From Mobula hypostoma (Eukaryota), in assembly GCF_963921235.1 (NCBI RefSeq), contig NC_086108.1, forward strand, positions 70,620,001-70,684,000: DNA of 64,000 nucleotides. The letters are read 5' to 3'. Of this stretch, positions 2,835-60,700 are shown one piece after another. The notes beneath the pieces were generated by a model, which was not told the DNA's origin, made no database searches, and saw only the letters and a program-made list of their open reading frames with translations. Every line of letters starts with the position of its first letter. Within the stretch, counting starts at the first letter, position 1. The position numbers and the translations under genes were made by a program.

Positions 2835-3009
2835 CCTCAATGGCCATTCTCCTCTTTGGCCAGTTTTTGTGTTCTCTTGTTACAAGATCTTTTACCCGTA
2901 TACAGATGACATATTCTTCCAATGCAAACTCTAGAGTGTAAAATTTCAATAATTCTAGCCAGAGGCGTCCAACTGAAACCTGGTGTGGTGAACCAAACTT
3001 CAATGCAGC
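2835..3009 (-). CDS. TUT4: TUT4 coding exon 11 (175 nt): AALKFGSPHQVSVGRLWLELLKFYTLEFALEEYVICIRVKDLVTREHKNWPKRRMAIE
   Basis: Hand translation; PAP-associated-like motif LWLELLKFYT...IEDPF; AG/GT boundaries, phase 0 to 1. Confidence 0.95.
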
Positions 3010-6301: not shown

Positions 6302-6481
6302 ACACAAGAGATCCTGCAGGTACTGGAAATCCAAAGCCACACACACAAACTGCTGGAGGAACTGAGCAGGTCAGGTGGCATCAATGGAAAGTCCACGTTT
6401 CAGACCCAAGACAAGATGAAGGACCATTTCCATAGATGCTGCCTGACCTGCTGAGTTCCTCCAGCATTTGTGTGTGTTGCA
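6302..6481. mobile_element. Older fold-back Penelope-tail element
   Basis: Inverted arms ACACACAAACTGCTGGAGGAACTGAGCAGG / CCTGCTGAGTTCCTCCAGCATTTGTGTGTGT. Confidence 0.75.
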
Positions 6482-7751
6482 AGAGTGTGTTACAAGCTTC
6501 TTCATTTGTTTGTTGCCCTTTGACAATTCTATCCAGCCACAGGCAGTTCTGCAATATGATGCAATATTTACATTCCTATGAAACTTAGGACAGCAAAATT
6601 AAATTGAAAGCATGTCTTCAATGTCTGGGCAAGAGGAGGAGGAAAGCACAAGAACCAGGAGCAGAAAAATCCTGGTCTCAGGGATATTTCAAAAGGGTTT
6701 AAGCAATGGTGGAATTTTGGATTTTAAATGTGGTCAGGAAAGCACAGTATAATGGATCTCATACAGAACTGAATAAGCACAACTGAGTTTAATAAACTAA
6801 GATTATTTAGAGTGAAACATGAAGTCTAACTACAGATGCCAAAAGAGCCAATGATAAAGCTGTAGATGCCATAATAGATATTGGATCATTTCAGTGTTTA
6901 GCCAAACAGCTCTATGTCTCATCCAAGATGAGCTACTAGGCCATTTGGTTTAAAATACATCATCAATAAAGGGCTCCAGAGAGGTGATAGAGATTTAGGG
7001 TCATCAGTAATTCAGTGGGAGCTGAATCAGTAACAGTTAGTTTTGCAACAACATGAGTTTCCATAATGCAATCTGGTTATAAAGCAATTGACAGATTAGG
7101 GAACACAATTTGCATTACACAACTTTCTATAAAGCCAAGCTTCTTAGGAATGTAACTATTGCATCATATTGCAGAACTAACTGTGTCTGGATAGAATTAC
7201 CAAAGGACAACATACCAATGAAGAGGTGGACAAGGCCAAGGATGAATGCCTGGGTAACTCATAACAAGGCAGTAAGAGGATGACAAAAGCTATTCCTAGA
7301 ATTTGCAAGTCAGAGATAGTTCCTTTTTAGAAATATAGTAGTGAAGAGGCAACTTTAAAAGACTGCTCAGCACAATCTAAGTATGCTGAAAAAAGCCACT
7401 CTCTCTTGTTAATATTCTGTAGCACAAGTCAGGAATTCCATTTCAGTTTTCAGATTTTGTATTATTTTTAGTACAATATTGTATTACAATTCAGGTATGG
7501 AATTTAAGACAAGTAATCATCATAACTTTTACTTTCCTGCAAATTCATTTTCAGTAACTAATTCCAGAGTGAAAGTTTTAACCTGAACTACTTGGCTGAC
7601 TTATCTGTAACCTTTAACCTTTAATAACAGAAATACTTTTATTGTGAAACCCTTCAATAAAGATTCAGTTCACAACTTTCTTTTTACTTTAAATTCTAAT
7701 TTTCACTTCTATTATTTAGATCAATAGTTTGCAGAAAACGAAAATACTCAC

Positions 7752-8037: not shown

Positions 8038-8281
8038 CACAAACACGAAGAAATCTGCAGATGCTGGAAATTCAAGCAACACACACAAAATGCCGGTGGA
8101 ACACAGCAGGCCAGGCAACATCTATAGGAAGAGGTACAGTCGGCGTTTCAGGCTGAGACCCTTGATCAGGTATCAAAGTATGTACATGCCTGACGAAGGG
8201 TCTCGGCCCGAAACATCGACTGTACCTCTTCCTATAGATGCTGCCTGGCCTGCTGCGTTCCACCAGCATTTTGTGTGTGCA
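8038..8281. mobile_element. Fold-back Penelope-tail element with hammerhead relics on both strands
   Basis: About 95-bp imperfect inverted arms around an 18-bp spacer; CTGACGA...GAAAC at 8190-8214; flanks ACAGTAGATCA (8027-8037) and ACAGGAGATCA (8282-8292). Confidence 0.85.
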
Positions 8282-9357: not shown

Positions 9358-12300
9358 CATAGAGTCATAGAACACAGCAGCACAGAAACAAGCCCTTTGG
9401 CACACCTAGCTAGCACTGAAACATTAATCTGCCTAGTTCTATTGATCTGCAGCCAGACCACAGCCCTTCATACACCTCTCATCCATGTAACTATCCAAAT
9501 TTCTCTCAAATGTTGAAATCAACCATGCAGCCACCACTTGCCCTGGCAGCTTATTTTATACACTCAGCACCCTCTGAGTGAAGACATTCCCTCTTCATGT
9601 TACCCTTAAACATTACATCTTTCACCCTTAACCCTTATCTAGTGTCAGCCAACCTCAGTGAAAGCCTGCTTGCATTTACCTTGTCCATACCTCTCATAGT
9701 TTTGTACATCTCTATCAATTCTCCCCTCAATCCTCTACATTCTAGGGAATAAAGTCCTCACCTTTAAAGTCCAACCCCTTTCCCTATACCTCAGGACCTC
9801 AAGTCCTGGAAACATTCTTGTAAATTCTTGCTGCAGTCTTTCAATCTTATTTCAATCTCTCCTGTAGGCAGGTGACCAGAACTACACACAATACTCCAAA
9901 TTAGGCATCACCAACGTCTTATACAATTTCAACATAACATCCTAACTCCAGTACTCAATACAGGAAGGTCAATGTGCCAAAAGCTTTCTTCACAACCCTC
10001 TCTACTTGTGACGCCACTTTCAAGGAATTGTGGACGGTATTCCCAGAGCCCTCTGCTCTACCACACTCCTCAGTGCCCCACTGCTCACTGTGTAAAATCC
10101 ACCCAGGTTATCCTTCCCAAAGTGCAACACCTCAACCTTGTCTGCATTAAATTCCATCCGCCAATTTTCAGCCCATTTTACCAGCCAGTCTAGATGCTGC
10201 TGTAAGCTTTGAAAGTCTTCCTCATTGTCCACTACACCCCAAACTCTGATGTCATCTGCAAATGTGCTGATCCAGTTTACCACATTATCATCCAAATCAC
10301 TAATATAGACAACAAATAATAATGGATCAGAATCGATCCCTGCGGCACTCTACTAATCACAGGCTTCCTGTCAGAGAGGCAACCATCCACTACTGCTCTC
10401 TGGCTTCTTCCACAAAGCCAATATCTAATCCAATTTACTACCTTTTCTTGAATGCCAAGCAACTGAACCTTCTTGACCAACCTCCTAATGGGACCTCATC
10501 AAAGGCCTCGCTAAAGTCCATATAGATGACATCCACTGCCTCAACTTCATCAGCTTTCCTGGTAACTTCCTCAAAAAAACTCTAAAAGCATGGTTAAACA
10601 GGACTTACCATGCACAAAGCAACATTGACTATCCTTAATCAATCTCTGGCTATCCAAATACTTATCAACCTGGTCCCTCAGAATACCTTCCAATATCTTT
10701 CCCGCTACTGATGTCAGGCTCACCGGCCTATAATTTCCTGGTCTATTCTTAGAGCCCCTGCAATTTCTGCACTAGCTTTCCTAAGGGTCTGAGCAAACAC
10801 ATTGTCAGGCCCTGAGGATTTATCCATCCTAATTTGCTTCAAGACAGCAAGCACCTCCTCCTCTGTAATCCATATAGGGTTCATGACCTCAATGCTGTAT
10901 TGCTTCGCATCAATAGACTCTGTGTCCATCTCCAGAGTAAATACAGATGCAAAAATTCCATTTAAGATCTCCCCCATCTCTTTCAGCTCCACGCAAAGAT
11001 TACCACTCTGATCTTCCAAAGAACCATTTTTATCCCTCACTATCCTTTTGTTCTTAATATACCTGTAGAAGTCTCAGGATTCTCCTTCACTTTGTTTGCT
11101 ACAGCAACCTCACGTCTCCTTTTTGCTTTCCTGATTAAGTGTTCTCTTGCATTTTTTATTAACTTCAAGTACCTAATTTGTTCATGCTTGCCTATACTTG
11201 CTATCACCACCTTCTTTTCTTAACCAGAGCCTCAATATCTCTCGAAAACCAAGGCTCCCTAAACTTGTTACCCTTGCCTTTTATTCTGACGGGAATATAC
11301 AAACTCCCAAAATTTCACTTTTGAAGGCCTCCCACCTACCAAGTACATCTTAGCCAGAAGACAACTTGCCCCAATCCACATCTGCCAGATACTTTCTGAC
11401 GCCATCAAAATAGGTCTTTCTCCAATTTAGAATCTCAATCTGAGGACCAGACCGATCCTTTTCCATAATTATCTTGAAACTAATAGCATTATGATCACTA
11501 GATGCAAAACGTTCCCCTACACATACTTCAGTCACCTGCCCTGTCTCATTCCTTCATAGGAAATCTAGAATTACATTCTCTGTAGTTGGGACTTCTATGT
11601 ACTGATTAAGGAAACCTTCCTGAACACATTTGACAAACTTTACCCCATCCAGTCCTTTTACAGTATGGGAGTCCAAATCAATATGTGAACGTAAAATCAC
11701 CTACTACCATAACCTCAAAGAAGAGAGAATCTACAAATGCTGGAAATCCAAGCAACACACACAAAATACTGGAGGAACTCAGCAGGCCAATCAGCATCTA
11801 TGGAAAAGAGTACAGTCGACGTTGCGGGCCGAGACTCTTCGGGCCCAAAATGTCAACTGTACTCTTTTCCATAGATGCTGCCTGGCCTGCGAAGTTCCTC
11901 CACCATTTTGTGTGTGCCACTATCACAACCTTCTGTTTCTTGCAACAGTCTGCGATGTCTCTATAAATTTGCTCCTCTAAATCCCACAGACTGTAGTGTG
12001 ATCTATAATATAATCCCATTAACATGGGCATATCTTTCTTATTCCTCATTACTAACAAGAAAGCCTCACTGGACAAGCTCTCTAGTCTGTTCTGTCTGAG
12101 CACTGCCATGAACACTTCTCTGTTTAGTAATGCCATCCCTCCCACTCAATCACATGTAAAACAACAGAACCAAGGAACATTGAGCTGCCAGCCCTGCCCC
12201 TCCTGCAACCAAGTCTCAGCAATGGCTACAATGTCAATTCTACGTACTGATCCATCCTCGAAGTTCATTCACCTTTCCTACAATACTGCTTGCAATGTAA

Positions 12301-18444: not shown

Positions 18445-19361
18445 GAAAAAAAGCCTCCGGATCCAGCACATTATCCTCCGCAACTCCCGCCACCTTCAAT
18501 TGGACCCCACCACTAAGCACATATTTCCCTCTCCACCCCTCTCCGCTTTCTGCAGGGATCGGTCCCTCTGCGACTCCCTTATCCGCACGTCCATCCCCAC
18601 TGATCTCCCACTTGACACTTATCCCTGTAAGCGTAAGTGCTACAGCTGTCCCTACACCTCATCTCTTGCAACCATTCAGGGCCCCAAACAGTCCTTCCAG
18701 GTGAGACAACACTTCACTTGAGTCTGTTGGGGTCATCTATTGCATCCGGTGCTCCCGGTGCGGCCTCCTCTACATCAGTGAAACCTGACGCAGATTGGGG
18801 GACCGCTTCGTCGAGCACCTCCACTCCGTCCGCCACAACAGACAGGATCTCCCGGTAGCCACCCACTTCAACCCTGCTTCCCATTCCCATTCAGATATGT
18901 CCATACATGGCCTCCTCTACTGCCATGATGAGGCTAAACTCAGGTTGGAGGAGCAACACCTCATATACCGTCTAGGTAGTCTCCAGCCCCTTGGTATGAA
19001 CATAGAATTCTCCAACTTCTGGTAATTCCCTCCCCCTCCCTTCCTCTATCCCTATTTCACTCTACCCCCTCCCCCAGCTCCCTCATGGTTCCGCCTCCTT
19101 CTTCTACCACCCATTGTTTTCAGGGCTATGACGTCAATGCTTCCCCTCCCCCACCCCTTTGTCTTTCAAATTACTGGTCTTTCAACTGAAGCTACAAGCA
19201 TTCTTCAAATCCTTCCCCATCTTTCATTCTTCAGTCCTGACGAAGGGTCCCGGCCTGAAACGTCAACTCATCATTTCTAACTGATGCTGCCCGACCTGCT
19301 GAGTTCATCCAGCATACTGAAAGTGTTGCTTTGATCACAGCATCTGCAGATTATTTTGTGC
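18445..19361 (+). mobile_element. 5'-truncated Penelope-like element (Cys motif + GIY-YIG endonuclease + tail)
   Basis: YPCKRKCYSCPY, GDRFVEH..PVATHFN..RLEEQHLIYRLGSLQPLGMN; exact 13-bp TSD TGAAAATAATTGA at 18432-18444 and 19362-19374. Confidence 0.92.
19232..19269 (+). ncRNA. Minimal hammerhead ribozyme motif (one stem I mismatch)
   Basis: CAGTC-CTGACGA-A-GGGT CCCG GCCT-GAAAC-GTC-AACTC. Confidence 0.6.
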
Positions 19362-22132: not shown

Positions 22133-22967
22133 CAGGGGTCCCCAACCTTTTTCACAATATTGACAATATTCTTGCGGACCAGCCGACTGGGGTGGCGGGG
22201 GGGTGGTGTTCAACTAAGGTTAAACTCACCTCAATATGTCTTTTACAGTTAGGGTTGCCAACTTTCTCACACCCAAATAAAGGACAGAAGTAGCAGTCAA
22301 ATCCTGACGAAGGATCCCGGCCCAAAATGTCGACTGTACCTCTTCCTAGATGTTGCCTGGCCTGCTGTGTTCACCAGCATTTTGACTACCATGACCATGA
22401 AGCCTTGTGCGGGCACCTGTGTGCACATGTGTGACGTGTGCATATGTGACGTGGGTATGCACGTACGTGCCGATTTTTTTGCTCCACAAATTGGTTTTGG
22501 CTTAACCTTCCCGACTACACTGTACACACATTATTTTTACTTTATATAGGCTGTGTATTTATCATGTCATTAATGCTTTTACTATATGTTAGAGTTATTT
22601 TAGGTTTTATGTGTTATTTGGTAGGTTATCTTTTGGGTCTGGGAACGCTCAAAATTTTTCCCATATAAATTAATGGTAATTGCTTCTTCGCTTTACGACA
22701 TTTCAGCACGAAAGGTTTCATAGGAATGCTCTACCTTAGTGGGGGAAATATGGGACAAGGGCGGTCCCGTATGGGACAAACAAATTTAGCCCAATATACG
22801 GGATGTCCTGGCAAATACGGGACAGTTGGCAACCCTATGTTCAAGTTCAACAGTGCGTGACAGGGAATGAGGAAAGGTGCAGCTGACTCATATCATTTCC
22901 TCGCGGCCCGGTAGCACATGCTTTGCGGCCCAGTACCGGTCCTCAGCCTGGTGGTTGGGGACCGCTG
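22133..22967. mobile_element. Non-autonomous hAT element (composite)
   Basis: TIRs CAGGGGTCCCCAACC / GGTTGGGGACCGCTG; exact 8-bp TSD CAATATAC at 22125-22132 and 22968-22975. Confidence 0.92.
22215..22837. mobile_element. Inner hAT-like element with TAGGGTTGCCAAC ends
   Basis: TAGGGTTGCCAAC at 22250 and GTTGGCAACCCTA ending 22837; possible TSD TGTTCAAC (22207-22214) / TGTTCAAG (22838-22845). Confidence 0.7.
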
Positions 22968-23310: not shown

Positions 23311-25260
23311 GGCAGAAGAGAATGGGGCGCCACCGGAGAGTAGTGCACAACTGCCAGCAGGCGCGCGAGAAGGAAGACCAACCCAGCGCGTGCCAGATGG
23401 CGGGTGAGACAGGCGGGTGCCGGGTGGCCGCGCCTCACACAAATGATATTAATAAATGCAGGAAAACAAGCAGGAATCACCTGTCTGTGCTTACAAGCAT
23501 GCACCAACATGTGAAGAGATCTAGCGCAACCAAAACAATGTGCAGCAGATTGGTACGGTGGCCTGGAAAATTTGAAAATACAGTTGTGTGGAAAATTTGA
23601 AATCATTGCGGATTATCAAAGGAACTGGATTACAGGTAGTCGGATTAAAGGTCGACCTGTACCAGTTTCTGTAAAGGCTGCAGCTTTCATTTTGTTTGAT
23701 CTCTGTAGAATCCTGGGAGGAAGTGATACAAATTGCAGTATAATTTGCCATTTTACAAAACATACTAGTAAAACTTTGTTTTAATGATTAAATTAAATGT
23801 AAAGCAGTGCATATTTTAAAATCAAAGGAAACCAATTAGATCAAAAGACAAGACTAAAAGTGAGACTAAAGGACTAATAAAGATTTTAAAAAGAACTTTC
23901 AAGTGTAGTATGCTGCTTGGAACATGAAATAACCAGTCACGATTCCCCACATTTTAAACAAAGAAACCATTTATTTTGCTGTTGTTAGTATTAAGGGGAA
24001 CAGAAACAAGGCTGTTAATAAATACTAGCATTTCCAACTAAAAGTAATATCTGATCATGTAATTTAAAATAAAATATATCATGTGAGAAACCCTCAGAAG
24101 TATTTCAGATTGTCAAATCAGCCCTGTCTGCAAAGATGTTATACATTATTTTCATAAACAATGAAAAAAAATACTTCAGGAGGCATAGACAGGCTAGTGA
24201 AAAGTGTATAGATCACGATAAAATAGTATGAAGCAATTCATTTTGATTGGAGAAAGAGGAATCACAAAATAAAAGGGTTGGTGGAAGAGGTGTGTGTGTC
24301 TGTGTGTACACATCGTCGAAAGTGCTGAATGACATCTACTGGACCATTGGAGTTATAAATTGAGAAAGAGCGCAAAAGCAATGATACACCTTTTAATATC
24401 ACTGGTTAGGCCCCTGGTGGTCATTTTCAGTCACCAGACTTTAAGGACATCAAAGCCAAAGAGAGAATACTTCATTTACTTCTGATACATGAGGCTATTC
24501 TGCTCATCTAGTCCACGCCAGCTCCCAACAAGTACAATCCCATCAATCCCTTCATCCATCCCCATTCCTTGTAGCTTTGCAACTCATTTTCCTTGATTCT
24601 TTTATAATTAAACAATGTTAAAGGTTACATTTAAAGCAATCCATTGATCTTCTTCTGACACACCTTTCATCATTTTACTGATGACTGAAAGTATAGGAAT
24701 GAAACTGCATTTAGGTGGATTCAATTAGGTATTTTTTTATGGGTAGAGTACACCTGAGCAATTCTCTATACTGGCAGGTAGATAAGAATGCTGAACTTGT
24801 GTGTTACAACTTGGAATGGGCACGAACAGTTCTCAAGAACTTCTGAACCACATTATATAGCTTTTGATTACATTATGCTCTCAGCCACATCCACAATCCA
24901 GCAGAAAGGCAGAAAAGGCACAAATGATTTGAATGCCCTACTCTAGCTCCAGTGAGAGCGAAATCTTGAAACTAAAGTAAATCCAGCTCAAAACCTCTAG
25001 GTACAATACTTAGTGAAAAATGCTTCTGTTGCACTAATGTTTTCATTAAGTCACAACTTTTCAAAGTCTGAATCAAAGCTATAAGAATTAAACATTGATA
25101 AATCTCAATCTGCTTGAATACTTCAAATGTCTAATGTCAGAACTGATTTTGGTATTAGTCAAGTAAGAATTCAGAGCTAAGTAGACTCAGTTCTTATTAG
25201 TATTTGGATGGCAGACTGCCTAGGAGTACAAGGGGCATTTAAACAAGATTCTGATCAATG

Positions 25261-26090
25261 AACATACATCAAAGTTGCTGGTGAACGCAGCAGGCCAAGC
25301 AGCATCTGTAGGAAGAGGTGCAGTCGACGTTTCAGGCCGAGACCCTTCGTCAGGACTAACTGAAGGAAGAGTGAGTAAGGGATTTGAAAGTTGGAGGGGG
25401 AGGGGGAGATGCAAAATGATAGGAGAAGACAGGAGGGGGAGGGATAGAGCCGAGAGCTGGACAGGTGATAGGCAAAAGGGGATACGAGAGGATCATGGGA
25501 CAGGAGGTCCGGGAAGTAAGACAGGGGGGGGGGGTGACCCAGAGGATGGGCAAGAGGTATATTCAGAGGGACAGAGGGAGAAAAAGGAGAGTGAGAGAAA
25601 GAATGTGTGCATATAAATGAGTAACAGATGGGGTACGAGGGGGAGGTGGGGCCTTAGCGGAAGTTAGAGAAGTCGATGTTCATGCCATCAGGTTGGAGGC
25701 TACCCAGACGGAATATAAGGTGTTGTTCCTCCAACCTGAGTGTGGCTTCATCTTTACAGTAGAGGAGGCCATGGATAGACATGTCAGAATGGGAATGGGA
25801 TGTGGAATTAAAATGTGTGGCCACTGGGAGATCCTGCTGTCTCTGGCGGACAGAGCGTAGATGTTCAGCAAAGCGGTCTCCCAGTCCGCGTCGGGTCTCG
25901 CCAATATATAAAAGGCCACATCGGGAGCACCGGACGCAGTATATCACCCCAGTCGACTCACAGGTGAAGTGATGCCTCACCTGGCAGGACTGTTTGGGGC
26001 CCTGAATGGTGGTAAGGGAGGAAGTGTAAGGGCATGTGTAGCACTTGTTCCGCTTACACGGATAAGTGCCAGGAGGGAGATCAGTGGGGA
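25261..26090 (-). mobile_element. Young 5'-truncated Penelope-like element with open GIY-YIG frame
   Basis: ORF 25654..26139 contains GVIYCVRCSRCGLLYIGET..DRFAEH..RLEEQHLIFRLGSLQPDGMN; flanking repeat GATCAATGAAC at 25253-25263 and 26089-26099. Confidence 0.93.
25321..25358 (-). ncRNA. Minimal type I hammerhead ribozyme motif (intact core)
   Basis: UAGUC-CUGACGA-A-GGGU CUCG GCCU-GAAAC-GUC-GACUG: stem I UAGUC/GACUG, core CUGAnGA + GAAA, cleavage triplet GUC. Confidence 0.75.
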
Positions 26091-26420
26091 TCAATGAACT
26101 CAGTTTCAGTCTAAGGTCATTATACATTGTTATTGTCAAAAGCAGTATTGCAAATGAGCAATGAGATTATTTGTTCGGTGAAATTGATACTTCCACCCAT
26201 CCGTTAATACCATAAAGTATTTTTTCCAGGTAGAAGTTGTCAAGAGTGAACTACTGTGATCTGCCTAAAATGATAGGAATATTTTCACATTTCACACCTA
26301 GGTTTCACATTAATCATTTTCATTACAACATTAATCAGCAAGATAATTGATGTCATTTAAATGTTTTTCAAGAGTGCATGAATAACAGTTCTTAAATGAA
26401 ATATAACTGTAAGACCTTAC

Positions 26421-27042
26421 CGACCACATCTGCTTTCTTTTCCGCTTCTTTTAGATCCCGCTTGGCTTTCCCAAGCAAAGCATAATTTTCACCATTTGAT
26501 TGTATAGATGGCTTGCTTGCCTGTGCCATACATTCCATTTTCATCTCTTCCTTTGGTTTCACAGGTAAGCATTCTTTTTCGTTAACAGTCTTTGCACCAC
26601 TGCTGCAGTGAGAGTTCATAAATTTCCCAGCAGACTGCTGCTGTGACTTGACGTGCTTCTGTTTCACCTTTTCAACAGATGCCATCCCACTAGATGTCCA
26701 GTTTCCTTGGTAGTGGTCATGTGTACTCCGTATTCCTGAATTTCTTGAGCTAGTCATACAGTTTGCTACGTCTTGTTTGCTGCCCTTGCTTGGTTTCACA
26801 TCTGAGCTTTTATCGATGTTCTTTCTGTCTATTTGTTCCCCATTCCATTTTGACTTTTTGTTATTCCAGTTTGAAACAGTTTTTCCACTATCCTGAGAAT
26901 TGCCCTCGGTTAGATTTCTGGAAGGTTTCTGTTCAATATCATTTTGAACAGTAACTTTCATGTCCTTACCTTCACCATGGACAACGCGAACTGATTTACC
27001 AGATTTGTGTACTTCACCTTTTCCATTTTTAGTTTCTTCCAT
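26421..27042 (-). CDS. TUT4: TUT4 first coding exon (622 coding nt; exon extends 5' to 27139 as UTR): MEETKNGKGEVHK...
   Basis: ORF 26392..27042; ACAACAATGG start context; donor G|GTAAGG at 26420; acceptor TTTTTGACAG at 27141-27140; phase 1 matches the next exon. Confidence 0.88.
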
Positions 27043-30085: not shown

Positions 30086-30295
30086 TTAAAAACGCAAACA
30101 ACAGGAACTCTGCAGATGCTGGAAATTCAAGCAACACACATCAAAGTTGCTGGTGAACGCAGCAGGCCAGGCAGCATCTCTAGGAAGAGGTACAGTCGAC
30201 GTCAGGACGAAGGGTCTCGGCCTGAAACGTCGACTGTACCTCTTCCTAGAGATGCTGCCTGGCCTGCTGCGTTCACCAGCAACTTTGATGTGTGT
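30086..30295. mobile_element. Very young fold-back Penelope-tail element
   Basis: Perfect 69-bp inverted arms 30134-30202 / 30227-30295; exact 13-bp TSD AACATGGTTTTGT at 30073-30085 and 30296-30308. Confidence 0.92.
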
Positions 30296-33827: not shown

Positions 33828-34090
33828 CATACAAGAATGCAGATGCTGGAATCTGAACACACAAAATGCTGGAGGAACTCAGTAAGTTGGGCAGTATCTG
33901 TAGAGTTTCAGTCAAGACCATTCGTCTGGACTGAAAGAGGGGAGAAACAGTATAATAAAGTGAAAGGAAGGGGTGGAGTAAAAGCTAGCAGGTGACACGT
34001 GGATGTAGGTGAGGAGACTGATCAGATTAGGGTGGGAGAGAGTGGGAATGATGTCAGAAGCTGTGAGGTGATAGGTGGAAATGACAATGA
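33828..34090 (-). mobile_element. Old Penelope-tail fragment
   Basis: TGCAGATGCTGGAATC..ACACACAAAATGCTGGAGGAACTCAG followed by a purine-rich tract like those at 25360-25650 and 59690-59970. Confidence 0.7.
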
Positions 34091-37004: not shown

Positions 37005-38515
37005 CAGCTGCAGGAAAAAGTTTGTGAACCCTCTGCAATTACCTGGTTTCCTGCATTAATTACTCATAAAATGTGGTCTGATCTTCATTTAAGTCACAAT
37101 AATAGACAAACACAATCTTTAGTCATTCACAGTCCAGCCTAGAAAAAGTATGTGAACCAATGTATTTAATAACTGGTAGAACCTCCTGCAGCTGCTGATC
37201 GGACTTGCATGATGGCGAGAAGCAATTTTAGACCATTCCTCCATATAAAACTGTTTCAGTTCATCAACATTTCTGGGATACCTTGCACAAACAACCCTCC
37301 TCAGGTCATGCCACAGCATCTGAATTCAGTTAAGGTCTGGACTCTGACCTGGCCAATCCAAAACACAAATTTTCTTCTTTTTTAAACGAATCTGTTGTGA
37401 TTTACTCTTGTGTTTTGTATAATTGTCTTGTAGCAGCATCCAAATGCTATCAAGTTTCAGGTGACAAACCGCTACCCCGACATTCTCCTGTAAAAAGTCT
37501 TGATACAATTTTGAACTCATTGTTCCCTCAACGATTGCAGCAGTCCAGGCCCTGAGACAGCAAAGCATTCCCAAACCATGATGCTCTTTCCACCATGCTT
37601 CACATTTGGGGTGAGGTTTTAGTGTTGGTGTGCAGTGCCCTTTTTCTTACAAACATAGTGGTGTGCATTTCTGCCATAAAGTTCAATTTTTGTCTCATTT
37701 GTCCACAGAACATTGTCCCAAAAGTATTGTGGAACATTCAGGTGGTCTTTTGCAAACTTGAATGTGCACAATTTTTTTAAAGAGAGCAGTGTTTTTTTTC
37801 CCATGGTGTCCTTCCATGAATATCATTCTTGTTCAGAGTTTTTCTTATAGTGGACACACAAACAGGGACTTTAGCAAGTTCCAGCAAAAGACCTGTTACC
37901 CCTGGGTTCTTTTTCACTTCCTTCAGCATTGTACATTGTGCTCTTGGTGTGATCTTTCCAGGATGCCCACTCCTAGGAAGATGAGCAACAGTACTGAATT
38001 TCCTCCATTTGTAGACAATTTCTCTTAAAGTGAACTGATGAACACTCCGGTCTTTAAGAAATGCTTTTGTAGCCTTTTCCAGCTTCATGCACCTCTGCAA
38101 TTCCTCTTCTATGGTCCTCAGAAAGTTGTTTTGATCGAGGCATGGTTCACATAAGCAGATCTTTCTTGAGAAGAGCAGGCTCTGTCAGTAACCTGACTTT
38201 GTGTGTCTTTTTATAAGGCAGGGCACCTCCACAACCCACACCTCCAATTTCATCTCATTGACTGGAACACCTGACTCCAAATAGCTTTTGTAGATGGCAT
38301 TACCTCAGAAATTCAATACTTTTTTTGAACCTAGACTGTGATTGTTTAAATAGTGTACTCAGTATTGATGAGAAGTGCAATTGTTTGTGTGTTATTAGTT
38401 TAGGCAAATTGTGTTTGTCCATTATAGTGACATAGGTGAACATCAGACCACATTTTATGAGTAATGTTGAAAACCAGGCGATTGCAAAGGGTTCGCAAAC
38501 TTTTTCTTGCAACTC
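37005..38515 (-). mobile_element. Near full-length degenerate Tc1-like DNA transposon
   Basis: TA-flanked long TIRs (CAGCTGCAGGAAAAAGTTTGTGAACCC / GGGTTCGCAAACTTTTTCTTGCAACTC); frameshifted transposase relics LPRSGHPGKITPR, VLWTNETKIELYG, LQDNYTKH, WPGQSPDLN. Confidence 0.93.
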
Positions 38516-41447: not shown

Positions 41448-43445
41448 CAGAATCAGGTTTATTGTCACCGGCGTGTGACATGGAATTCGTGAATTTAGCG
41501 GCAGCAGTTCAATGCAATACATAATCTAGCAGAGAAAAAAAATAATATAAAATAAAACCAATAATAATCAATTACGTATTACAGATTTTTAAAACCTGCA
41601 AAAACAAAAATACTGTATATTAAAAAAAGTGAGGTAGTGTCCAAAGCTTCAATGTCCATTTAGTAATCAGATGGCAGAGGGGAAGAAGCTGTGCCTGAAT
41701 CGTTCAGTGTATGCCTTCAGGCTTCTGTTTCTCCTCCCTGATGGTAGCAGTGAGAAAAGGGAGGTCCTTAATAATGGACGCTGCCCTTCTGAGACACCAC
41801 TCCCTAAAAATGCCCTGGGTACTTTGTAAGCTAGTGCCCACGATGGAGCTGACTAGATTTACAATCTGCAGTTTCTTTCAGTCCTGTGCAGTAGCCCCTC
41901 CATACCAGACAGTGATGCAGCCTGTCAGAATACTCTCCACGCTACAACTATAGAAGTTTTTGAGTGTATTTGTTGACATGCCAAATCTCTTCAAACTCCT
42001 AATGAAGTATAGCTGCTGTCTTGCCTTCCTTATAACTACATCGATAGGTTGGGACAAGGTTAGATCCTCAGAGGTCTTGACACCCAGGAGCTTGAAACTG
42101 TTCACTCTCTCCACTTCTGATCCTTCTATGAGGATTGGTATGTGTTCCTTTGTCTTACCCTTCCTGGTCCACAATCAGCTCTTTCGTCTTACTGATGTTG
42201 AGTGCCAGGTTGTTGCTGCGGAACCACTCCACTAGTTGGGATATCTCACTCCTGTACACCCTCTCATCACCACCTGAGATTCTACCAACAATGGTTGTAT
42301 CGTCAGCAAATTTATAGATGGTATTTGAGCTATGCCTAGCCACACAGTCATGGGTCTATGGAGAGTAGAGCAGTGGGCTAAGCACACACCCCTGAGGTGT
42401 GCCAGTGTTGATCATCAGCGAGGAGGATATGTTATCACCAATCCGCACAGATTGTGGTCTTTCAGTTAGGAAGTCGAGGATCCAATTGCAGAGGTAGGTA
42501 CAGAGGCCCAGGTTCTGCAACTTCTCAATCAGGATTGTGGAGTGATGGTATTAAATGCTGAGCTATAGTCAATGAACAGCATTCTGACGTAGGTGTTTGT
42601 GTTGTCCGGGTGGTCTAAAGCTGTGTGGAGAACCATTGAGGTTGTGTCTGCCATTGACCTATTGTGGCAATAGGCAAAATGCAATGGGTCCAGGTCCTTG
42701 CTGAGGCAGGAGTTCAGTCTAGTCATGACCAACCTCTCAAAGCATTTCATCACTCTCAATGTGAGTGCTACCAGGCAATCATCATTAAGGCAGCCCACAT
42801 TATTCTTCTTAGGCACTGGTATAATTGTTGCCTTTTTGAAGCAAGTGGGAACTTCTGCCCATAGTAGTGAGAGGTTAAAAATGTCCTTGAATACTCCCGC
42901 TAGTTGGTTGGCACAGATTTTCAAAGCCTTACCAGGTACTCCATTGGGACCTTCCACCTTGCGAGGGTTCACTCTCTTTAAAGTCAGCCTCTGAGATGGA
43001 GATCACAGGGTCATCAGGTGCAGCAGGGATCTTCACAGCTGTAATTGTGTTCTTCCTCTCAAAGCATGCATAGAAGGCGTTGAGTTCATCTGGTAGTGAA
43101 GCATCGCTGCCATTCATGCTATTGGTTTTTGCTTTGTAGGAAGTAATGTCTTGCAAACTGTGCCAGAGTTGCCGTGCATCTGATGTCACCTCCAACCTCG
43201 TTTGAAATTGCCCTTCACCCTTGAAATAGCCCTCCGCAGACCATACCTGGCCTAGGTTGCCAGACTTGAATGCCACAGATCTAGCCTTCAGCAAACGACG
43301 TACCTCCTGGTTCATCCACAGCTCTTGGTTTGGGAATGTACAGCAAGTCTTTGTGGGAACACACTCATCCACACAGGTTTTAATGAAGTCGGTAACAACT
43401 GCAGCATACTCATCCAGGTTTGAAGATGACTCCCTGAATACAGTA
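41448..43445 (-). mobile_element. Rex1/Babar-like LINE, 5'-truncated and frameshifted
   Basis: RT relics [61 protein letters not shown]. Confidence 0.92.
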
Positions 43446-44854
43446 GAGTAAAGAAGCACATATAACTGTCTATTGGTGATCTCTGTCATTAAATGATCCG
43501 CATACCTAGATAATTGGAGAAGATGCATGTTCAAAGTACTCTTTTGTTCATAAAATAACATAAAATGTTGAAACTTTATGGAAGAACGAGAATAATCTGC
43601 CCAGTACAAATGCAGCTTAAATTTCTGCATTTAGTCAGTTGTCCAATTATTAGCCAATTGTCCAATTTGAGATACATTGTAGTTTTTGCCAGGCCAGAAC
43701 ATGTTGGTAAAATGTTGCAACATTGAAAAGGAGTGAGGGATTAAATTGTTCTTTTTTAATGTCTGTATTTTAGTGTTGTTTGCCCTGAGCTGAAAGAGTT
43801 AATTAAATTTGCCACTAATTTCCTGCTTTGTCTCTAATTCCCTAGCCTTTCTGACTCAAGACTGGATTCCAATCATGACTATTGATCATATTTCTTTCTG
43901 GAGGATGGCTGTAAAATATGACTCTGATATTCCCATTTACAGCTGACCCATCATCTGTTTGATTATTATTCTATTGATATTCCTTTCTTGCACTCATTTT
44001 TGTTAGTTGAAGTCTCTTCCAGTGGACCCAAATCAGACCTTCTCCTTAGTTCTTTCCTCCTTTCCCCCTATTTTCCCAGCCTCTGTACTTTCTTAAAACA
44101 TTATTGTATCTCTAACCTTGCCAGTCCTACTGGAAGTCTTGAACTAAAACACGATTGCCTCTCCCGTGTAAATGTTGTTTGAGAATTTCTTACATTTTTC
44201 TTGAATATACTGGGTGAGTGAACTTACACAGTTTTCTGGGGTCATGAAATTCAAAGATTCACATGTCATTGGATGAAAAAAAATCTTTTTTCTGTGCTGA
44301 ATGACTGAATCCTTATTTTGTTACTGTGACCGGAAAATGCTATATTGGTTTTCCAGACAAATCAGCATCTCTCTTCAAGTCCCATAAGAACTGAGTATAT
44401 TTCACTGAATTTTCGTCTCATTCTGTCAATAGAGTACAGGTCTGGTCTGCTTATTCTCTTCTCATACTACAAATCCTCTGTTCTAGAAATTAATAGTTGC
44501 ACCCTCTCTGCTGCAAGAATGGTCCTCTTTTGGTTGGGAAACCAGACATGTAAACGAGCTTCCAAGTGTAATTTCACCAGGATTTCATATGTAAGAAAAA
44601 TCAAATTCTCTTGTAATAAAGGCCAATGCACTTTGTAACTACTTGCTGAATCTGCAAATTAACTCCCAGTGAATTATACAGAGGGATACTTGGGTCCCTC
44701 TGAATATTACTAATACACCATGTTATAAACACTCTGCCTTTCTTTTACCTACCAAAATGGATGACTTCTCATTTTCCCAAGTTATATTTCATCTTCCTTA
44801 CCAATTCCCTTACCTTTCTATATTACCTATTAAATTTCTGCACATCCCCTTCCT

Positions 44855-48998: not shown

Positions 48999-49083
48999 CA
49001 ACACACATCAAAGTTGCTGGTGAACGCAGCAGGCCAGGCAGCATCTCTAGGAAGAGGTACAGTCGACGTTTCAGGCCAAGACC
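48999..49083 (-). mobile_element. 85-bp solo Penelope-tail insertion
   Basis: Matches the young tail; exact 13-bp TSD CTGTATATAGGCA at 48988-49000 and 49083-49095. Confidence 0.88.
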
Positions 49084-53339: not shown

Positions 53340-56300
53340 ATTCTAAAGGGAGGATGAGGCAACCATGGCTGACAAGGGAAGTCAAAGAAAGCACAATGCA
53401 AAAGAGAGGGCATATAATATAGCAAAAAATAGTAGGAAGTTAGAGGATTGGGAAGCTTTTAAAAACCAACAGAAGGCAACTAAAAAAAACATAAGTGGAG
53501 AGATGGTGAAATATGAAGGTAAGCTAACCAATAATATCAAAGAAAATACCAACAGATTTTGTTATAAAGAGAGATGAGAATGGATATTGGACTGCTGAAA
53601 AATAACTTTGCAGAGGTAGCAATGGGGGACAAAGAAATGGCAGACAAACTTAATAAGTATTTTGCATCAGTCTTCTCTGTGGAAGACACTTGAATGCTTG
53701 AAAGTGAGTTACTAAGGAGAAGGTGCTTGGGAAGCTGAAAGGTCTGAGGGTAGATAAGTTACCTGGAGACATGGACTACACCCCAGGGTTCTGAAATAGG
53801 TAGCTGAAAAGATTGTAGAAGCATTAGTAATGATCTTTCAAGAACACTAGATTCTGGAATGGTTCCGGAAGGTTGCAAAATGGCAAATGTCACTCCACTC
53901 TTTAATAAAGGAAGGTGGCAGAAAAAAGAGAGCTATAGGTCAGTTAGCCTGACTTCATTGGTTGGGAAGATGTTGAAGTCGATTAGTAAGGATGAGGTTT
54001 CGGGGTACTTGGAGGTGCATGATAAAATAGGCCAAAATCAGCATAGTTTCCTTCAGGGGAAATCTTGCCTGACAAAACTGTTGGAATTCTTTGAGGAAAT
54101 AACAGGCAGAACAGACAAAGGAGAGTCAGTAGATGTTGTTGACTTGAATTTTCAGAAGACCATGACTATATAACCATATAACAATTACAGCACAGAAACA
54201 GGCCATCTCGGCCCTTCTAGTCCGTGCTGAACGCTTACTCTCACCTAGTCCCACCAACCTGCACTCAGCCCATAACCCCTAATTCCTTTCCTGTCCATAT
54301 ACCTATCCAATTTTTCTTTAAACAACAATATCGAACCTGCCTCTACCACTTCTACTGGAAGCTGGTTCCACACAGCCACCACTCTCTGAGTAAAGAAGTT
54401 CCCCCTCGTGTTACCCCTAAACTTTTGCCCCCTAACTCTCAACTCATGTCCTCTTGTTTGAATCTCCCCTACTCTCAATGGAAAAAGCCTATCCATGTCA
54501 ACTCTGTCTAGCCCCCTCATAATTTTAAATACCTCTATCAAGTCTCCCCTCAACCTTCTACGCTCCAGAGAATAAACACCTAACCTGTTCAACCTTTCTC
54601 TGTAACTCAGGTGCTGAAACCCAGGTAACATTCTAGTAAATCTTCTCCGTACTCTCTTTATTTTGTTGACATCTTTCCTATAATTTGGTGACCAGAACTG
54701 TACACAATACTCCAAATTTGGCTTTACCAATACCTTGTACAATTTTAACATTACATCCCAACACCTATACTCAAAGCTCTGATTTATAAAGGCCAGCATA
54801 CCAAAAGCTTTCTTCACCACCCTATCCACATGAGATTCCACCTTCAGGGAACTATGCACCATTATTCCTAGATCCCTCTGTTCTACTGCATTCTTCAATG
54901 CCCTTCCATTTACCATGTATGTCCTATTTTGATTAGTCCTACCAAAATGTAGCACCTCACATTTATCAGCATTAAACTCCATCTGCCATCTTTCAGCCCA
55001 CTCTTTTAACTGGCCTGAATCTCTCTGCAAACTTTGAAAACCTGCTTCATTATCCACAATGCCATCTATCTTAGTATCATCTGCATACTTACTAATCCAA
55101 TTTACCACCCCATCATCCAGATCATTAATGTATATGACAAACAACATTGGACCAAGTACAGATCCCTGAGGCACATCACTAGACCTCCAACCTGACAAAC
55201 AGTTATCCACCACCACTCTCTGGCGTCTCCCATCCAGCCACTGTTGAATCCATTTTACTACTTCAATATTAATACCTAACGATTGAATCTTCCTAACTAA
55301 CTTGATAAGGTACCTCACATGAAGCTGCTTAACAAGGTAAGAGCCCGTGGTGTTATAGGAATGATATTAGCATGAAGAGAAGATTAGCTGACTGGCAGGA
55401 GGCAAAATCAGAATAAAGTGGGCCCATTCTGGTTGGCTTTTGGTTACTGGTAGTGTTCTACAGGGGTCAGTATTGGGACCGCTTGGTTTCACTTTTGTCA
55501 ATGATTTGGATGATGGAATTGATGGCTTTGTGGTCAGGTTTGCAGGCAATAGGAAGATAGGTGGAGGGGCAAGTATTGTTGAGGAAGCAGGGAGTCTGAA
55601 GAAGGACTTGGACAAATTGGGAGAATGGCAAAGAAGTGGCAGATCGAATATAGTGGAGGCAAGTGTATGCTCATGCACTTTGATAGAAGGAACAGAGGTG
55701 CAGACTATTTTCTAAACTGGGAGAAAATTCAAAATTCAGAGATGCAAAGTACTTGGGAGTCCTTATGCAGGATTCCCTAAAGGTTAACTAGCAGGTAGAG
55801 TTGGTGGTAAGGAAGGCAAGTGCAATGTTAGCATTCATTTCAAGAATATAAAAGCAAGGATATACTGCCGAGGCTTTATAAGGCATTGGTCAAACTGCAC
55901 TTGGAGTATTGTGAACAGATTTATCCAAGAAAATATGTGCTGGCTTTGAAGAAGGTCCATAGGAGGTTCACAAGAATGATTCCAGGTATGAAAGGGTTAA
56001 CATATGAGGAACGTTTGATGGCCCTGGACCTATACTCACTGGAGTTCAGAAGAATGTAGGGGAATATAATTGAAACCTATTGAATATTGAAAGATCTAGA
56101 TAGAGTGGATGTGGAGAGGATGTTTCCTATAGTGGGAGAGTCTAGGATCAGAGGGCACAGCATCAGAATAGAGGGACATAGAAGGCAAATGCAATGTTAA
56201 CATTCATTTCAAGAGGACTAGAATATAAAAGCAAGGATGTAATGTTGAGACTTTATAAAGCATTGGTGAGGACTCACTTAGAGCAGTTTTGGGCCATTTA

Positions 56301-59581: not shown

Positions 59582-60700
59582 GCAACACACATAAAAGTTG
59601 CTGGTGAACGCAGCAGGCCAGGTAGCATCTCTAGGAAGAGGTACAGTCGACGTTTCAGGCTGAGACCCTTCGTCAGGACTAACTGAAGGAAGAGCTAGTA
59701 AGAGATTTGAAAGTGAGGGGGGAGGGGGAGATCCGAAATGATGGGAGAAGACAGGAGGGGGAGGGATGGAGCCAAGTGCTGGACAGTTGATTGACAAAAG
59801 GGATATGAGAGGATCATGGGACAGGAGGCCCAGGGAGAAAGAAAAGGGGGAGGGGGAAAAAACAAGAGGATGGGCAAGGGGTATAGTGAGGGGGATAGAG
59901 GGAGAAAAAGGAGCGAGAGATAAAGAGTATGTGTATATAAATAAATAACGGATGGGGTACGAGGGGGAGGTGGGGCATTAGCGGAAGTTTGAGAAGTCAA
60001 TATTCATGCCATCAGGTTGGAGGCTGCTCAGACGGAATATAAGGTGTTGTTCTTCCAACCTGAATGTGGCTTCATCTTTACAGTAGAGGAGGCCGTGGAT
60101 AGACATATCAAAATGGGAATGGGATGTGGAATTAAAATGTGTGGCCACTAGGAGATCCTGCTTTCTCTGGCGGACAGAGCATCGGTGTTCAGCAAAACGA
60201 TCTCCCAGTCTGTGTCGGGTCTCACCAATATATAGAAGGCTGCATCGGGAGCACCGGACGCAGTATATCACCCCAGTCGACTCACAGGTGAAGTGTCACC
60301 TCACCTGGAAGGACTGTCTGGGGCCCTGAATGATAGTGAGGGAGGAAGTGTAAGGGCATATGTACCACTTGTTCCACTTACAAGGATAAGTGCCAGGAGG
60401 GAGATTGGTGGGAGGGATGGGGGGGGACGAATGGACAAGGGAGTCGCGTAGGGAGCGATCCCTGCGGAAAGCAGAAGTGGGGGGGAGGGAAAGATGTACT
60501 TAGTGGTGGGATCCCGTTGGAGGGTTTTTTTTAAATTGCTAATGTATTGAAATTTGAAAGTAAACAATATACAGGTTCCCTCCGCCCGAAACGTCGACTG
60601 TACCTCTTCCTAGAGATGCTGCCTGGCCTGCTGCATTCACCAGCAACTTTGATGTGTGTTGCTTGAAATTCCAGCATCTGCAGATTTCCACGTGTTTGCG
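59582..60700 (-). mobile_element. Penelope-like element with inverted tail copy at its 5' end
   Basis: GIY-YIG relic ORF 59978..60271; body 59582-60523, filler about 60524-60580, inverted tail 60581-60700; 14-bp flanking repeat TCTCTACC(T/A)ATGGC at 59570-59583 and 60701-60714. Confidence 0.92.
59644..59681 (-). ncRNA. Minimal type I hammerhead ribozyme motif (intact core)
   Basis: UAGUC-CUGACGA-A-GGGU CUCA GCCU-GAAAC-GUC-GACUG. Confidence 0.72.

Follow-up and report, generated by a model that had tools for sequence, protein, structure and literature searches.

A 5′-truncated Penelope-like element (copy A), located in an intron of TUT4 in the ray Mobula hypostoma, carries a minimal type I hammerhead motif (Table 1). 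It is very probable that this is the hammerhead of a Neptune-type pseudo-LTR, that tandem source elements would cut only with a second motif or the element protein, and that the lone copy is inert, as predicted here. The window, meaning the whole 64-kb stretch of DNA that was analyzed, contained further copies of the same family, several of them in inverted pairs.

Table 1 Coordinates in the window of the hammerhead of copy A, its element, the host exon and the other copies.
Feature	Position	Strand	Remarks
Minimal type I hammerhead motif, copy A	25321-25358	-	Predicted cut 25326/25325
Stem I	AGUC 25357-25354 with GACU 25325-25322	-	Plus terminal U-G pair
Catalytic core C3-A9	25353-25347	-
Single extra A between positions 9 and 10.1	25346	-
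Stem II, 4 bp	GGGU 25345-25342 / GCCU 25337-25334	-	Opens with G10.1-U11.1
G12-A14	25333-25331	-
Palindrome A15.1 C15.2 G16.2 U16.1 (ACGU), no loop 3	25330-25327	-
C17	25326	-	Last base before the predicted cut (after GUC)
5′-truncated Neptune-type Penelope-like element, copy A, without optional tail	25264-26088	-
Uninterrupted 3′ end of element ORF (144 aa + stop)	25654-26088	-	CX4CxxC linker, GIY-YIG with CCHH
Pyrimidine-rich (79%) spacer, 295 nt, from stop codon to motif	25359-25653	-
Element sequence 3′ of hammerhead, 57 nt, to short (tail-less) 3′ end	25264-25320	-
Target-site duplication, 11 bp, element's 3′ side	25253-25263
Target-site duplication, 11 bp, element's 5′ side	26089-26099
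First coding exon of TUT4	26413-27042	-	Next exon 20023-19856
Copy B, intact hammerhead 59644-59681	59584-60700	-	Tailed inverted arm H ~60578-60700, plus
Copy C, older subfamily, tailed; hammerhead 19232-19269	18445-19361	+	13-bp duplication
Inverted pair D, tail on left arm only	8045-8270		Both motifs broken
Inverted pair F	30086-30295		13-bp duplication; whole motif in neither arm
Inverted pair I	11723-11925		Partial motifs
Inverted pair J	6304-6488		Decayed
Short single arm E	22302-22387	+	Motif mutated at G12
Short single arm G, starts in stem II	49001-49082	-	13-bp duplication
Old decayed copy K, tailed, pyrimidine tract upstream	33837-33929	-

A preliminary description of this DNA had assigned 38 nt to a hammerhead downstream of a GIY-YIG open reading frame (ORF), and both claims were borne out. 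The quoted sequence was an exact match to the reverse complement of positions 25321-25358, placing the motif on the minus strand, 295 nt after the stop codon, and the full type I numbering could be applied to it. Hammerheads share a common numbering of positions, with a core that has the catalytic role. Copy A showed the type I order: the 5′ strand of stem I, CUGANGA, stem II, GAAA, a NUH triplet and the 3′ strand of stem I. The core pattern was found three times in the window and in none of 100 dinucleotide shuffles. A structure-aware descriptor, which takes pairing into account, had two matches (25353 and 59676, both on the minus strand) and none in 20 shuffled windows. Stem II opened with G10.1-U11.1 in copies A, B and C, and with G-C in the other window arms. 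An alternative register of this stem (A10.1-U11.1, 3 bp) was rejected, having -5.4 vs -6.8 kcal/mol and a probability of 0.02 vs 0.87-0.97. In an Rfam scan, none of the six matches (E up to 5) was to a hammerhead family, and an identity with the canonical hammerheads of Rfam was discarded.

The element around the motif belonged to the Penelope-like group. GIY-YIG (PF01541) was recognized in copy A with an E value of 2e-4 and 22.0 bits, just below the cut-off of 22.6, and in copy B with an E value of 5e-6. The CxxC and the two His of the endonuclease were invariant in all eight aligned rows, and the linker read CX4CxxC. The ORF of copy A had 16 protein relatives, with identities of 92% for the best one (Mobula hypostoma), 76-90% for Hypanus and 63% for Rhincodon (whale shark). 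Reverse transcriptase (RT) was absent from the truncated copy A; two longer relatives (P0006 and L002) had an RT, below the Pfam cut-off, and a GIY-YIG in one frame. By the definitions in the accessible part of PMC8557442, and judged from the linker motif, not from an RT tree, copy A is an EN+ Penelope-like element of the Neptune type. The hammerhead is a component of its pseudo-LTR, sense to the RT-EN ORF. The preliminary description had spoken of the “tail”, a word that in the literature denotes an optional extension of 30-40 bp, absent from copy A. Both the anatomy and the host element support its further claim that the motif is a minimal hammerhead, of type I and with a palindrome for stem III, belonging to a Penelope-like element.

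Outside the window, three ray gene models (P0003, P0004 and P0013, for mucin-2, divergent protein kinase domain 1C and chitinase domain-containing 1 isoforms) contained element coding sequence, as either annotation artefact or exonisation. An exact 32-letter pattern of the family had no match in viral, prokaryote-genome or metagenome contigs. Aligning the endonuclease protein against viral contigs gave 22 candidates, none of which was confirmed as a relative.

As in the Neptune EN+ elements of PMC8557442 (available in part), the GIY-YIG was C-terminal, with CCHH, and came with a CX2-5CxxC linker; according to the same text, Nematis also has a linker, in reduced form. Shared with the Neptune elements in the accessible parts of PMC8557442 and PMC3846280 were also the 5′ truncation, the inverted 5′ partner, the one-ended tail of 30-40 bp and the target duplications. 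Unlike in Neptune elements, the ray family had a 295-nt pyrimidine tract between stop codon and motif, its short arms measured ~80-125 bp and mostly started within the motif, and no microsatellite target was found at the duplications in the window.

Minimal hammerheads in the pseudo-LTRs of metazoan Penelope-like elements were described by Cervera and De la Pena in 2014 (PMC4209133, available in part). The ray motif resembled them in being of type I, with CUGANGA plus one extra base, G10.1, stems I and II of 4 bp, no loop 3, palindromic positions 15.1-16.1, NUH and a U-rich 5′ flank. It matched their consensus (CUGANGAH, G10.1, GAAAN, palindrome and NUH) position by position. The genomic setting was similar too, a repeat after the RT-EN ORF with mostly dispersed, single, truncated copies. 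Unlike the usual G-C of that set, the ray subfamily had G10.1-U11.1, which the published descriptor permits and which occurs in its cichlid and Xenopus rows. In the accessible content of Table S1 and Fig. S3 of PMC4209133 we found no row for a cartilaginous fish, and the ray family adds such an example to the class. Among the papers within reach of our search, which most subscription papers were outside of, none dealt with this family. By comparison with the published set, the ray motif has every testable feature of Penelope-like minimal hammerheads, and self-cleavage as a dimer but not as a monomer would be expected of it by analogy.

PAc, a Poseidon element of Anolis carolinensis, also carries its hammerhead in the pseudo-LTR and uses uncleaved templates, as reported in the accessible part of PMC11167929. 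The two 3′ ends of the ray family, ~35 bp apart, correspond to the two internal RT start sites described there. Unlike the ray element, PAc belongs to the Poseidon clade, with an ORF beginning in stem II; the ray copies available, none of them full-length or in tandem, did not reveal where their ORF begins. Non-LTR retrozymes bear type I hammerheads related to those of Penelope pseudo-LTRs, as here (bioRxiv 10.64898/2026.07.22.740005, available in part). The same preprint reports retrozymes together with Penelope-like elements in one chondrichthyan genome, and the ray family may be among the latter. Retrozymes consist of non-coding tandem units, each with a hammerhead, whereas copy A is coding and without a tandem neighbor. 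An identity as retrozyme was rejected, with coding sequence present and a head-to-tail neighbor at none of the 15 arms in the window.

Within the ray family, the motif stood out from its surroundings. Copies A and C were 92% identical over the motif, 80% over the ORF, 52% over the tract and 60% over the 3′ flank; the preliminary description had named, as part of what would refute the ribozyme, a core conserved no better than the flanking sequence, and this comparison did not refute it. For four of 24 runs, contigs were placed on 1.25 kb at 80% likeness (232,776, 207,047, 15,619 and 8,776 contigs), their summed depth not being a copy number. Among the six positions listed per run, loose contig ends at 25357 numbered 618 (X1) and 450 (X5), and at 25321 they numbered 539 (X1), 445 (X5) and 47 (X20). 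Ends at both outer ends of stem I indicate that other subfamilies match exactly over the motif. In X20, the most distant run, depth was 135,160 in the motif bin vs 18,053 and 39,941 in the bins beside it, and it peaked solely at the motif and the ORF end; in X1 and X5 the motif bin reached only ~1.4 times the depth at the ORF end. The one variant inside the motif, among the 40 of 171 listed, was U11.1>C, at 19, 29, 20 and 71% of depth. It turns G-U into G-C and keeps the pair. As 40 of the 171 variants were listed, core variants may exist beyond those seen. The sequence comparisons thus define the motif as a conserved island between subfamilies. The family is also useful in itself: its copies are very numerous and span a gradation of ages, some insertions are recent and species-specific, and the junctions can be read.

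Covariation of the stems, proposed in the preliminary description as a check, was found across distant families and not within the window. The six window rows showed two-sided covariation at none of eight pairs, and RNAalifold on six window copies returned an inactive rod, likewise without covariation. Farther away, 48 metagenome loci encoded relatives of the endonuclease, mostly 31-49% identical. In 13 of these a motif lay 105-513 nt downstream of the endonuclease match, on the sense strand; among the 41 loci having at least 400 nt of room, 11 had one. The other sense bases, 105,786 in all, had no match and the shuffles 0.02 each, and the single antisense descriptor match was an inverted arm. 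The remaining 35 of the 48 loci were without a descriptor match, some being too short and several having decayed matches. Between distant families, DNA similarity often shrank to the 32-40 bp of the motif. Across ten rows, from about four families, six of the eight stem pairs changed on both sides, as reached by one in 500 shuffles, and the rows were 92.5% paired, as reached by none of 500; these counts are not probabilities, because the descriptor used to pick the rows requires pairing and only about four families are covered. L001 (misaligned) and L004, L006, L032, L034 and L035 (duplicates of L002 or L005) were left out of the pair count. The ACGU palindrome was unchanged in all ten of these descriptor-picked rows. 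In L005 and L032-L035, the copies of a distant relative sat within a tandem repeat with a period of ~20 bp.

The search with hammerhead models, also proposed beforehand, failed with Rfam but succeeded with a covariance model made from eight non-ray rows alone: 25321-25358 and 59644-59681 (copies A and B) ranked first (E 5e-4, a rough value), the motif at 8190 and copy C came next, and the one at 22304 was missed. We infer that the motif was kept by selection on active source elements.

In the window there were 15 end pieces of the family, in ten insertions: the long copies A, B and C, the old copy K with its tract, and 11 short arms. All five related copies named in the preliminary description exist where it placed them; most of the arms were missed there, and among its six motifs only those at 25321 and 59644 are intact. 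The motif at 19232 had G1.1>A, with loss of the closing pair of stem I. The one at 8190 was without the 5′ strand of stem I and had G16.2>A, the one at 22304 had G12>A, G10.3>A and C15.2>U, and in the one at 30207 C3 and U4 were missing. Five insertions were head-to-head pairs, and in all five a ~35-bp tail was found on one arm only. Target duplications were exact in four of the ten insertions (11-13 bp), near-exact in two (by eye) and without a clear form in four. The duplication of copy A was exact (11 bp), and that of copy B was exact over 8 bp, or 14 bp with one mismatch by eye. An AT-rich filler of ~50 bp, at 60530-60578, links copy B to the inverted arm H, and the filler of pair D had 18 bp. 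Internal deletions had removed the middle of the hammerhead in the left arm of pair F (30190-30215, in one of two parses) and in an arm at L008:1637-1737.

Folding predictions, which ignore proteins and co-transcriptional order, gave for the monomer a rod as the best structure, with the core paired to the cut-site strand. Its folding energy was not outstanding compared with shuffles (z -1.24). Adding 14 upstream bases lowered the predicted probability of stem I from 0.95 to 0.01, the last 14 nt of the spacer being predicted to pair with the hammerhead core. No tandem (dimer) partner for copy A was found in the 64-kb window, and the closest intact motif on the same strand was 34 kb away. With its core sequestered and no near same-strand partner, which inverted pairs cannot provide, copy A is predicted to be carried along in the TUT4 intron without activity.

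For source elements we propose the following course. They would be arranged in partial tandem, with the motif in the 5′ part of the RNA of the downstream unit. Without a stem III of its own, the motif likely needs a second motif or the element protein to cut after GUC, a need that we derive from published results on monomers, dimers and protein-assisted cleavage. Such motifs showed no activity as monomers and low activity as dimers in the accessible part of PMC4209133. One of nine Xenopus dimers was cleaved (bioRxiv 10.64898/2026.07.22.740005, available in part), and the anole motif, which required protein for its cleavage, was dispensable for insertion in vitro (PMC11167929, available in part). 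By analogy with these systems, the ray ribozyme may have been recently active and dependent on dimers, as the preliminary description had supposed. Reverse transcription would start internally, at one of two sites 3′ of the motif, giving tail-less or tailed ends. The template would mostly be uncleaved RNA and synthesis would stop early, leaving behind scattered copies, truncated or inverted, which decay with time.

The 5′ ends of the short arms bear on the template. Ten of the 11 started at 25335-25355 (copy A coordinates, ends by eye), within the motif, on the upstream side of the cut site. None started at 25325, and an origin of the short copies from ribozyme-cut RNA was rejected. With no arm beginning at the cut site and ten extending upstream of it, the RNA that served as their template had likely not been cut, which fits the report in the accessible part of PMC11167929 of uncleaved RNA as the main template.

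The same ends could be read differently, the motif being kept mainly as a two-fold symmetric RNA clasp in which the palindromic stem III (ACGU) holds two uncut RNAs together as a dimer. A protein dimer would then prime both target strands, one at each internal start site, and the reverse transcriptases would stop and join at the clasp, giving head-to-head pairs with junctions inside the motif. Consistent with this are the ten short arms with 5′ ends in the motif and the single tailed arm in each of the five pairs. So is the anole protein, a predicted dimer that cuts and extends both strands and inserts without ribozyme cleavage (PMC11167929, available in part). In a binomial test against the sequence 3′ of the motif, p was 0.002 for all arms and 0.0025 for the tailed arm per pair, but 0.17 for the tail-less arms, and arms of one pair are not independent. 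Tailed and tail-less arms stopped in the same zone. The single arms E and G stopped there too, however, without an inverted partner, and the motif depth in X1 and X5 was just ~1.4 times that of the ORF end. A stall at a ray-specific hairpin or at the pyrimidine tract, which the short-arm ends may reflect, would account for the same ends. In the distant relatives, none of six inverted arms ended in the motif (-15, -46, -66, -89, at least -106 and at least -230 from C3; L027 gave no self-match and is outside these six), and a general rule of inverted arms stopping inside the motif was rejected. The dimer with two hammerheads was predicted at -11.1 kcal/mol, vs -30.3 for an inactive duplex. On balance we regard the clasp as unlikely. 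If true, it would account in one stroke for the restriction of the tail to one arm, the head-to-head arrangement and the 5′ ends in the motif. It would also assign a structural role to the Penelope hammerhead, so far unexplained, and this role could be tested at hundreds of thousands of junctions in the genome. Genomic sequence by itself would suffice to test how insertion proceeds, provided that the 5′ ends really do mark a dimer of ribozymes on the template.

A ribozyme switched on by splicing is a reading that we consider quite improbable. A 3′ splice site would be formed by the tract together with an AG located two bases ahead of the core, and removal of the intron would take away the sequestering strand. 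In copies A, B, C and K the pyrimidine tract indeed ends in AG right before UCCUGA, and the upstream bases are predicted to sequester the core. There is also a precedent in Drosophila virilis Penelope, whose intron ends at helix I (PMC4209133) and is needed for expression (PMC2377424), according to the accessible parts of both sources. However, the AG also belongs to stem I, which already explains its conservation, and in none of seven motifs of distant families was an AG found at that place. Short arms starting near there share no upstream exon, and none of the 15 joints listed, out of 848, used the site.

The window covers the TUT4 gene on the minus strand, with the longer exons 94-100% identical to the Mobula birostris protein and the shorter segments less so. 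Copy A lies in sense orientation in a TUT4 intron, ~330 bp past the first coding exon. In run X5 (DNA of a related organism), a contig of 3,854 nt tracks this intron up to 26089, the edge of the duplication, and continues for 1,628 nt without placement on the element. The X5 depth at the opposite flank was 41.3, near the 39.5 of the contig. The empty site in X5 is deduced from this, as the joint itself was not among the 15 of 848 joints listed. The insertion of copy A is likely recent, given its exact 11-bp duplication and its likely absence in X5. The preliminary description had called the family young, which suits this insertion but not the family. The latter is old and mixed, as indicated by the divergence of copies A and B (86-92% identity outside the motif, i.e., 8-14% different), by X1 contigs in all likeness classes (43,967 at 99% or more and 38,978 below 90%) and by the whale shark ORF relative at 63%.

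With an intact motif in this position, copy A might, by itself or together with copy B or transcripts of other copies, cut the pre-mRNA of TUT4 and so lower TUT4 output in the carrier species. A low-depth contig of a presumed RNA run does span the adjacent intron, and partners in trans may exist, the family being very abundant. We nevertheless hold such cutting to be very unlikely: the core of copy A is predicted to be sequestered in its context, and copy B is 34 kb away and may fall outside the transcript. Moreover, anole RNA-seq had no reads ending at the cut site, in the accessible part of PMC11167929, and the insertion is likely lineage-specific and thus bears no sign of long retention. 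A resemblance to hammerheads by chance within a repeat, to which the Rfam result and the folding z-score could be taken to point, has a practically negligible probability in view of the shuffle counts, the conservation between subfamilies, the covariance-model ranking and the position-specific conservation in distant relatives, the last of which rules it out.

Several minor features were seen elsewhere in the window. An old Penelope-like copy at 4220-3010 (minus strand, RT thumb and endonuclease, ~40% protein identity) lies in sense in a TUT4 intron. Its pyrimidine tract abuts the acceptor site of the exon at 3009 and may have been co-opted for splicing there; alternatively, the hammerhead end, of which none was detected, may have been deleted. 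An Rfam match to MIR2670 at 30179-30250 (E 0.004, far under the gathering score) was the perfect fold-back of the inverted pair F, and inverted pairs such as F would be expected to give RNA hairpins within the transcript region of TUT4. Other transposon debris comprised fragments of Tc1/mariner transposase and two frames for non-LTR reverse transcriptases (37326-38184, 54245-55366 and 42529-43630).
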